Origin: a bacterium
GTDB lineage: Bacteria > Patescibacteriota > Minisyncoccia > Phycocordibacterales > Phycocordibacteraceae
Assembly (NCBI GenBank): GCA_021824605.1
Contig: JAKAKH010000013.1
Span: forward strand, 1-48,056
Direction: 5' to 3'
Length of the DNA: 48,056 bases
A program made the translations under genes and the position numbers. Positions 24,299 through 24,542 of this stretch are shown here, in pieces (positions within the stretch are counted from its first letter, which is position 1; every line of letters begins with the position of its first letter). The notes beneath the pieces are model-generated. The model was not told the DNA's origin. It worked only from the letters and a program-made list of their open reading frames with translations, and ran no database searches.

Positions 24299-24369
24299 TG
24301 GGAGATCGTCTAAAGGTAGGACAGGGGCCTTTGAAGCCCTCAATCTAGGTTCGATTCCTAGTCTCCCAG
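24299..24369 (+). tRNA. trnQ: tRNA-Gln (anticodon UUG), 71 nt, no encoded CCA
   Basis: Hand fold: TGGGAGA/TCTCCCA acceptor (U1-A72 as in bacterial tRNA-Gln), GTCT/GGAC D-stem, GGGGC-CTTTGAA-GCCCT anticodon arm, CTAGG-TTCGATT-CCTAG T-arm, discriminator G. Confidence 0.9.
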
Positions 24370-24396
24370 CAAATTGTGCGAAGCAGCAATTTGCTG
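24367..24396 (+). other. Spacer hairpin between tRNA-Gln and the tRNA-like RNA
   Basis: CAGCAAATTG...CAATTTGCTG, a 10-bp stem with inner TGC-GAA-GCA, overlapping the last 3 nt of the tRNA. It occupies the same position as hairpin 7182-7208 at the Trp locus. Confidence 0.4.
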
Positions 24397-24542
24397 TGGA
24401 GAAGCACGCCTGGGAGGCGTGCGGCTAGGAATCGAAAACCTTGCGAGCATAGTTTAGAACGGAGTGATAAACTATGCTCGCAAGGTGTACTGATCCTGTA
24501 AGGATCGATAAGGCGTACTCGCCGGTCCTAGTCTCCCAGCCA
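24397..24542 (+). ncRNA. 146-nt tRNA-Gln-cognate tRNA-like structured RNA ending in GCCA (alternatively the 3' part of a T-loop intervening sequence plus 3' exon)
   Basis: Layout: TGGAGA(24397-402)-A-[GCACGCC TGGGA GGCGTGC]-GG-CTAGG(24425-29)-AATCGAAAA-[18-bp perfect hairpin 24439-24485]-TGTACT-[GATCCT GTA AGGATC]-GATAA...GG-T-CCTAG-TCTCCCA-G-CCA(24540-42). The last 15 nt before CA duplicate the tRNA-Gln 3' end. It has the same architecture and length as 7031-7176. Confidence 0.6.

Follow-up and report, generated by a model that had tools for sequence, protein, structure and literature searches.

The 3' ends of tRNA and transfer-messenger RNA (tmRNA) genes are classical targets of integrases, and integrases of the T-loop class reportedly leave a direct repeat extending from the T-loop to the end of the gene. 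As in the integrative elements that target these genes (tyrosine-integrase islands, prophages and remnants of the cis-mobilisable element (CIME) type), the element described here enters the 3' part of a tRNA gene, restores the gene with a copy of its own, keeps the displaced end as a direct repeat and occurs in tandem arrays. It lies in tRNA-Gln(UUG) of a bacterium of the Patescibacteria, or Candidate Phyla Radiation (CPR), on a 48-kb stretch of DNA (contig JAKAKH010000013.1, positions 1 to 48,056; hereafter the window, meaning the whole stretch analysed). An initial annotation, made from the sequence alone, had described the locus as a structured RNA carrying mimics of the T-stem and acceptor stem of the adjacent tRNA. 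We now propose, with a probability of about 0.68, that the insert belongs to a family of small insertion elements (~150-180 nt) which is confined to the Patescibacteria and whose members are non-coding, highly structured and non-autonomous, carry a guide and reside in the 3' parts of tRNA and tmRNA genes.

Evidence for an insertion comes from sites where it is absent. The synteny of DnaX and tRNA-Gln(UUG) is kept across the Patescibacteria, and the insert is missing at ~35 of the ~50 orthologous loci. When the window is aligned with five of these empty sites, a single clean gap of 170 nt is obtained (24371-24540, + strand), with the insertion point at T-loop position 59|60 of tRNA-Gln; the insertion can equally be drawn as 24356-24525, its ends falling within a 15-nt repeat. 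At many empty loci, including the five aligned, tRNA-Gln ends in ...CCCAG-CCA followed by a conserved trailer ((N)TTGAGATAGGTTCGGACTCCGAG or (N)TTGAGATAGG). The empty-site gene end reads ...CCCAGCCA and continues into a trailer identical to the one that follows the downstream repeat copy (S2) in the window, and empty tRNA-Gln sites are devoid of any hairpin. As the native CCA and trailer of the empty sites recur in the same way after S2, the segment 24526-24542 is the displaced original gene end. The initial annotation had the 3' duplicate adding a CCA; in fact, CCA and trailer are the native end of tRNA-Gln, pushed downstream by the 170-nt insertion. Throughout the family, the direct repeat starts at T-loop nt 60 in virtually all copies, while its right boundary varies from the discriminator (0) to +40, at times spanning the whole native terminator. 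CCA follows S2 in ~9 of ~30 copies, and only where the native gene encoded it.

The insert brings four parts: a replacement 3' end for the tRNA, a hairpin, an antisense copy of the last 24 nt of the tRNA and a core of several hairpins, all described here on the + strand. The tRNA-Gln(UUG) gene (24299-24369/70; ARAGORN; 62.7 bits with the Rfam tRNA model) is intact, its last 14-15 nt being the element-side copy and its CCA not being encoded. This first copy of the 15-nt direct repeat, S1 (TCCTAGTCTCCCAGC, 24356-24370), comprises T-loop nt 60, the 3' strands of the T-stem and of the acceptor stem, the discriminator and position +1. It is followed by a spacer hairpin (CAAATTG-TGC-GAA-GCA-G-CAATTTG, 24370-24393), a position that is occupied in most homologs by a terminator-like hairpin made of an A-run, a stem and a T-run; no canonical terminator was called in the spacer hairpin of the Gln copy. 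Trailer, discriminator and acceptor 3' strand have their antisense (CAATTTGCTG-T-GGAGA) at 24387-24402, which includes A5* (TGGAGA, 24397-24402), the reverse complement of the acceptor 3' strand. Hairpin 2 (hp2; GCACGCC-TGGGA-GGCGTGC, 24404-24422) stands between the acceptor-antisense and the T-stem-antisense segments, the latter consisting of T5* (CTAGG) and Tloop* (AATCGAA) at 24425-24436, the exact antisense of TTCGATTCCTAG in the tRNA. Further downstream, the minimum free energy (MFE) fold predicts a long variable hairpin (24439-24485) with a perfect 18-bp stem in the Gln copy, then comes a conserved 24-nt block (24488-24511) containing hairpin 3 (hp3; UGAUCCU-GUA-AGGAUCG, 24491-24507), whose U.G closing pair and GUA loop are invariant, and finally hairpin 4 (hp4; GGCG-TACT-CGCC, 24512-24523), replaced in other copies by a GNA-triloop mini-hairpin, GCGAAGC or GGCGTAGCC. 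The locus closes with S2 and CCA (TCCTAGTCTCCCAG-CCA, 24526-24542), where the second copy of TCCTAGTCTCCCAGC (24526-24540) is followed by CA, making CCA. The coordinates and motifs first reported for the tRNA and the element, including the 15-nt repeat at 24356-24370 and 24526-24540, were all found where they had been placed.

The antisense segment is a Watson-Crick complement of the last 24 nt of the tRNA, split by hp2. It runs through trailer, discriminator and acceptor 3' strand and then, beyond hp2, through the T-stem 3' strand and T-loop, and thus spans both sides of the insertion point. The partner strands do fit the local tRNA, as had been proposed, in that they are the antisense of its acceptor and T-stem 3' strands. 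A5* is, family-wide, the reverse complement of the acceptor 3' strand and not a copy of the tRNA 5' strand, even at G.U pairs of the tRNA. For example, in the copies at tRNA-Glu the tRNA has G2.U71 (5' strand GGCCCCA) and the element GACCCCA, and the same pattern is seen at the G.U positions of T stems. A degenerate tandem duplicate of the tRNA was rejected on these grounds: wherever there is a G.U pair, A5* and T5* agree with the 3'-strand complement and not with the tRNA 5' strands; being a true complement there, the antisense segment shows that the element is not a decayed tandem tRNA copy. Nor can the tRNA-like 5' part of the initial annotation be upheld, since A5* and T5* complement 3' strands and the antisense extends into discriminator, trailer and T-loop, which would be superfluous for a mimic. 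The supposedly independent conserved joint AAUCGAA turns out to be the antisense of the local T-loop, and Tloop* tracks T-loop variants: TCCGATT is answered by AATCGGA (in two unrelated copies), TTCGAAT by ATTCGAA and TTCAAAT by ATTTGAA. As the matched T-loop nucleotides lie outside the duplicated segment, an intramolecular fold alone is insufficient to explain the matching. On sequence comparison, the tRNA-matched segments of the element hence suggest targeting by base pairing. At one locus (L106 596-840), the acceptor 3' strand of tRNA-Gln(CUG), TCCCACA, does not pair with its 5' strand, TGCCGGA, and A5* still fits the expected strand; this tRNA may have been inactivated after the insertion.

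The helices of the element are under selection. MFE folds match the architecture initially described, with z = -8.2 (Gln copy) and -5.3 (a sister copy at tRNA-Trp) versus shuffles, and consist of an acceptor-like helix, hp2 and a T-like helix closing a junction of the long hairpin, hp3 and hp4 (a four-way-junction core). Compensatory helix change, first noticed between two loci, extends to 55 distinct homologs: 90.8% of the alignment cells are paired, where shuffles give 64% and slid controls 36-47%, and double-sided changes affect 46 of 50 pairs. Since the alignment was fitted to a covariance model, these figures lean towards structure; they agree with the slid controls and with RNAalifold applied independently to a MAFFT alignment. 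Pairing reaches 98.2% in hp2 (helix 2), with double-sided changes in 7/7 pairs, 94.4% in the T stem, 91% in the long hairpin (helices 5 and 6; 17/17 pairs) and 98.6% in hp3 (helix 7). While hp3 is invariant in the copies found via the exact 24-nt block, more divergent copies carry compensatory variants (GACGAT/ATCGTC, GATCTC/GAGATC, GAACC/GGTTC and GCTCC/GGAGC). The covariation of the stems excludes a coding function, and the compensatory changes across homologs agree with the earlier view that the element is not a decaying scar. That the hairpins are selected for pairing in one strand holds as well: G.U cells (164) exceed A.C cells (57), and two invariant U.G pairs are conserved on the tRNA-sense strand only, which together designate this strand as the folded one, the G.U versus A.C signal being only moderate outside the two invariant pairs. 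Whether this strand folds as RNA or as single-stranded DNA is hinted at in both directions by the loops. GNA triloops, typical of stable DNA mini-hairpins, are found in hp3 (GTA) and in the hp4 variant GCGAAGC (GAA), versus UUCG and GNRA loops, typical of RNA, in spacer hairpins and a GNRA loop in hp2 of type-4 copies. A pseudoknot of Tloop* with UCGAU of hp3/J3 was considered and lacked consistent covariation, and inspection by eye found the motifs of hammerhead, twister and hepatitis delta virus (HDV)-like ribozyme cores to be absent.

Selection on the tRNA-sense strand is also what a functional tRNA-like non-coding RNA would lead one to expect. Such an RNA would be transcribed, matured by RNase P/Z at the acceptor/T minihelix, provided with CCA and act as a decoy or imitation of the adjacent tRNA, with retargeting by selection at the RNA level. 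Besides the strong covariation, this explanation can call on hp2, located as a tRNA body would be, between the acceptor and T-stem 5' strands, on the UUCG and GNRA loops, and on a context in which no promoter of its own is predicted and no canonical terminator stands between the Gln copy and its tRNA, making co-transcription possible. However, the A (acceptor) helix is the least conserved of the 8 helices, with 75.9% of cells paired and both strands perfect in only 5/28 copies. S2 has lost its acceptor part to decay in over half of the copies, against 94% pairing retained in the T helix that closes the core. With CCA and trailer belonging to the native gene end and CCA limited to the minority of copies given above, an acceptor/CCA mimic does not stand as a selected feature. 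Moreover, the superfluous reach of the antisense, the terminator-like hairpin that precedes most copies, the patchy distribution with tandem and truncated copies, and the failure of tRNA, tmRNA and YrlA models to match the element all speak against a tRNA-like RNA. The weak A helix, the decayed S2 and the native CCA make a tRNA-mimic function, including an aminoacylatable one, unlikely; the pairing is best seen as that of a guide with a copy of its target. We thus regard a functional tRNA-like RNA as an unlikely explanation, and the 'T-stem and acceptor mimics' are the antisense segment paired with the leftover gene end or with the tRNA's own 3' end.

The sister insertion of the window resides in tRNA-Trp(CCA) (7213-7283, - strand). 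It spans 7031-7211 (-), with 179 nt between the repeat copies and a covariance-model match of 140.8 bits, and shows the same order of a terminator-like hairpin, A5* (GAGCCA), hp2, T5*/Tloop*, core, S2 and CCA; S1 lies at 7226-7212, S2 (TCCTGGTGGGCCCGC) at 7047-7033 (-) and CCA at 7033-7031. The collinearity reported for 24397-24542 and the Trp-linked copy (7180-7031, -) was recovered with a mean column identity of 80%, and AGGAATCGAAAACCTTG and the 24-nt block TACTGATCCTGTAAGGATCGATAA are indeed shared exactly by both copies and absent from the rest of the window, in which 0.09 and 0.00 occurrences, respectively, are expected by chance. Regarding the acceptor mimic GAGCCA:UGGGCCC described at Trp, the bulge is present and the full pairing is not, only 5/6 pairs being formed. 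The idea that two loci were retargeted within one genome found no support, the cores being only 70% identical and each window copy having closer kin in other genomes. Eight contigs, from 7 samples, share an identical Trp locus, population look-ups gave no polymorphism at this site, and native tRNA-Trp genes encoding CCA exist elsewhere in the phylum. Of note, three independent Logan assemblies (L209-L211) end at the identical base within the T-arm of tRNA-Trp (AGTCCAGGTTCGATT...); the repetition of T-arm and element sequences may be a cause of fragmented CPR assemblies.

Beyond the window, a covariance model built from 12 copies and searched against 100 sources gave 56 matches (~55 distinct homologs), all in Patescibacteria. 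The exact 24-mer was found in 16 species-representative genomes, likewise all Patescibacteria, and in 27 metagenome contigs, and had no match in viral contigs; blastn against phages and plasmids gave no match either. Copies with the exact 24-mer almost always immediately adjoin the 3' end of a tRNA, which may be Gln, Trp, Glu, Arg, Lys, Ala, Gly, Ser or Pro, and one follows tmRNA. In total, the family is hosted by at least 10 tRNA species and tmRNA, with a related core type found after tRNA-Val. Of the tRNA-Gln genes in an unbiased CPR sample, 5/51 had the antisense module, versus 0/15 tRNAs in non-CPR control loci; a genome-level clustering of elements (4/25 versus 5/51) is not a clear enrichment. 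Scanning genomes with a degenerate loop pattern returned mostly chance matches outside the CPR, devoid of the other features, only L076 and L078 being real. An all-against-all blastp of the open reading frames (ORFs) within 3.5 kb gave no conserved neighbour protein, Rfam 15, at gathering and E-value thresholds, returned only tRNA and spurious hairpin matches for the window and six loci with other core types, and no description of the family was found in the literature searched.

Other cores were encountered in the same setting. Downstream of tRNA-Val, Glu and Trp, a second core type occurs (GGAAGTAT-hairpin-ACTGAG.C.GGG...GAAA-hairpin; L003 1010-1200(+), L011 3560-3745(-), L086 4171-4330(+) and L192 1918-2060(+)) and has no Rfam match; the full antisense/hp2 module is present in L003, and L192 carries at least an antisense of the tRNA end, encoded CCA included. 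A core type with two long hairpins and the conserved sequence GGTCTACTG.CCGAG.ACGG.CTGTC follows tRNA-Gln (L143 9595-9800, L146 7140-7330 and L171), and another one follows tRNA-Ser (L008 5024-5260). In L143, L146, L171 and L008, the core is framed by the same A5*-hp2-T5*-Tloop* ... T3-A3 module, and it looks as if the framing module were the constant part and the cores the variable one. Shortly after elements of different core types (L011, L087, L086, L076, L089 and L093), the motif TTGTGRCCAC(A)T recurs, at times followed by ...GCACGCGAAGTG.

Turnover and change of target can be read from the comparison of copies. L093 is a tandem array of two perfect 160-nt units and a third one with another core, further arrays occur in L095 and L078, and there are also nested copies, copies truncated at the 5' end and second units fused directly at T3|T5*. 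The tRNA-Gln site has furthermore been entered by several unrelated small structured inserts (L113, L116, L119 and L180) and, in L143, L146, L171 and L155, carries the same antisense/hp2 module with other cores. Nearest-neighbour cores share their tRNA target in only 15/45 cases, and the cores of L091 (Arg-TCT) and L093 (Arg-GCG) are 98% identical with the acceptor arm swapped; core similarity being independent of the tRNA target, retargeting is frequent. Five contigs of the source population carry an identical Gln allele. A second allele at the Gln site from the same sample (L197 1692-1776) diverges exactly after CCCAGC and continues with 44 unrelated nt, a direct copy of nt ~17-53 of tRNA-Gln, covering the anticodon arm and the T-stem 5' strand, fused to AATCGAAGACCT..., another type-1 core, within which the contig ends. 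Another contig (L203 1-361) combines tRNA-Arg(TCG), an Arg-matched acceptor arm and T5*, the hp2 of the Gln copy and an L097-like long hairpin with the S2, CCA and trailer of the Gln site. It is either a recombinant of two element copies or an assembly chimera via a shared block of >40 nt and, under either origin, implies a third copy, at tRNA-Arg, in the source species. As a separate observation, tiny inserts occur at or beside the discriminator/CCA junction after tRNA-Gln ...CAGCC (L113, L119 and L116), and also in L180 and L001. One of them is a two-hairpin unit of ~50 nt (GATTTTTAAGCGTAAAAATC plus GCGTCGAAA..TTTCGACG), that of L180 measures 46 nt, and L001 3700-3745(-) has a 38-nt insert at tRNA-Arg between 15-nt repeats.

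Tandem arrays, together with a displaced tRNA-Lys fragment that starts in the anticodon loop (L099) and a direct repeat running from the T-loop to the gene end at tRNA and tmRNA 3' ends, would also fit passive att-site scars, or miniature cis-mobilisable remnants of integrase-borne islands or prophages, whose hairpins would be incidental arm sequences. We nevertheless consider such scars quite unlikely. Neither integrase nor cargo is found between the repeats in ~55 copies, one conserved core serves at least 10 tRNA targets whereas integrases are site-specific, and compensatory changes in 46/50 pairs go beyond what double-stranded protein-binding arms explain. Furthermore, the 7 nt left of the repeat differ from the T-loop overlap, and phage, plasmid and viral collections gave no match. 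As for a local, non-mobile rearrangement in which the tRNA 3' end was duplicated palindromically, by fold-back at a terminator hairpin and separately for each tRNA, the continuous palindrome from the acceptor 3' strand via trailer and loop to A5* and an element-free tRNA-Leu terminator with a 3' arm antisense to the last 8 nt of its tRNA would suit it, but it is very improbable, since the same ~100-nt core, including the exact 24-mer, at unrelated tRNAs of different CPR classes refutes an independent local origin, and empty tRNA-Gln sites have no hairpin.

As the comparisons show, the element has inserted at nt 59|60 and begins with a replacement for tRNA nt 60-73, leaving the tRNA intact and depriving it of the encoded CCA, and the original end with CCA and native trailer remains downstream as the 'duplicate'. 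Under the proposed insertion-element reading, the antisense, spanning the insertion point, would probably be a guide aligning the juxtaposed ends of the element with the target strand, as do the guides of introns or of IS608 and IS110; the predicted fold places the two ends next to each other at the foot of the T helix. Guide-directed strand transfer could be the work of an enzyme acting in trans or of host recombination; the host has natural competence, and DprA is encoded in the window. Retargeting could proceed by swap or re-templating of the acceptor arm, a possible route being the correction of a quasi-palindrome against the functional tRNA strand. A further step, which we offer tentatively and deem rather doubtful, would be a homing mini-element that dispenses with a protein of its own or is driven by host enzymes, i.e., a folded RNA or single-stranded DNA of ~170 nt which recognizes tRNA genes through ~24 nt of pairing across the insertion point, enters at T-loop nt 59|60 with repair of the gene and is reprogrammed to a new tRNA by swapping or re-templating the guide arm. 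If true, this would be a compact insertion system that can be programmed and differs from introns, integrases and bridge-RNA insertion sequences alike.

Several points weigh against the insertion-element reading. No enzyme, excised form or transcript was seen, mobility being deduced only from comparative data. The Trp copy is fixed in 8 contigs and an Arg copy is apparently common to L097 and L203, so that many insertions are old, and the copy number is low (1-3 per genome sampled). S2 and T5* mismatch the adjacent tRNA in L099, L085 and L116, where locus histories are complicated, and the retargeting mechanism is speculative. Finally, hp2 sits exactly at the position of the tRNA body, which fits a tRNA-like shape at the RNA level better than a pure DNA target mimic.

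The genomic surroundings are those of an ordinary CPR chromosome. The window encodes TopA, DprA, RelA/SpoT, ParB, MiaA, Tgt, UvrB, SerRS, Dus and DnaX, its Pfam annotation is limited to housekeeping genes, and no integrase, reverse transcriptase, transposase or any other recombinase was found among its genes. Three very large ORFs (929, 784 and 799 aa) at 32021-37174 (+) and 44387-46786 (+) have no Pfam match at 1e-5; their products may be large surface proteins, which are common in CPR genomes. The native tRNA-Gln trailer (GTTTGAGATAGGTCCAGAGTCCGAGTAGTAT, 24543-24573, +) lies outside the element and marks the old gene end. It resembles a sigma-70-like promoter (TTGAGA-17-TAGTAT), left intact by the insertion, which probably serves the downstream gene, and (N)TTGAGATAGGTYCRGAGTCCGAG is kept in this trailer across distant Patescibacteria (window; L112, L131, L153, L147 and L172). 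The tRNA-Leu gene (11256-11337, -) is element-free. After tRNA-Leu(CAA), at 11207-11263 (-), there is a bidirectional terminator-like hairpin; its 3' arm extends into GTGCCGGG, the antisense of the final 8 nt of tRNA-Leu. This arm represents either a feature native to CPR tRNA terminators or the remnant left arm of an element.

If the proposed reading is true, CPR bacteria host an unnoticed class of minimal mobile DNA which is specific for tRNA genes, is harmless to the gene entered and chooses its site by nucleic-acid complementarity instead of an encoded protein. Insertion and retargeting of a 170-nt structured element would then constitute a testable system and, possibly, a programmable insertion tool. 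Moreover, such elements would account for the odd 'partial tRNA' repeats and CCA-less tRNA genes of CPR genomes, would be a source of breaks and rearrangements in CPR metagenome-assembled genomes, and would call for caution from annotators before labelling such loci as tRNA mimics.

Compared with known systems, the family departs from the tRNA-targeting integrative elements in its size of ~170 nt (160-180 nt between the repeats) and its lack of integrase and cargo, in having one core at 10 or more tRNAs instead of one att specificity per lineage, and in carrying an antisense of the target and hairpins selected for pairing. With guide-bearing elements, such as group I and II introns (internal guide sequence (IGS); exon- and intron-binding sequences (EBS-IBS)), the ends of IS200/IS605 and the bridge RNA of IS110, it shares an internal segment complementary to the flanking target, which covaries with it and spans the insertion point. 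Unlike these, its guide is ~24 nt long and a sense copy of the target is also carried, so that guide and copy pair. Contrary to group I and II introns, it has no catalytic core according to Rfam 15 E-value scans, which returned only tRNA, and its 146 nt lie below the known minimal sizes of these introns; contrary to IS110 and IS200/IS605, the element has no ORF and no DEDD or HUH/TnpB gene nearby.

Folded single-strand sites (attP(+) of CTXphi recognized by XerCD, and attC of integrons) are similar in that inverted target copies fold into a site-like duplex (S*:S2 and S*:S1), structure is kept more than sequence, units form arrays and GNA-triloop mini-hairpins are present. They differ in that the target here is a tRNA gene and not dif or attI, that no Xer or IntI motifs were identified in the element, and that a DNA strand is here only a possibility. 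MITEs (miniature inverted-repeat transposable elements), REPINs and Rickettsia palindromic elements are likewise short, non-coding, hairpin-rich, non-autonomous, repeated and patchy, whereas the present family has a strict specificity for tRNA 3' ends, a target-matched internal sequence and a low copy number; unlike those of MITEs, its ends are not mutual inverted repeats, and its repeat is a fixed-register tRNA piece of 14-49 nt and not a short target-site duplication. With tRNA-like structures (viral tRNA-like structures (TLS), the tRNA-like domain (TLD) of tmRNA, YrlA and mascRNA), it shares on paper an acceptor-like helix stacked on a T-like helix and, in the Gln copy, a 3' CCA. It differs from them in having no T-loop, in a T-stem that encloses a four-way junction of ~95 nt, in the 7 nt after T5* being the T-loop antisense, in a CCA inherited from the disrupted gene and absent in most copies, in a poorly conserved acceptor helix, and in 5' strands that are not derived from the tRNA. 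The family thus shares single features with tRNA mimics, integrase islands, introns, insertion sequences and MITEs, fails the membership of each of them, and is a so far undescribed family of elements.

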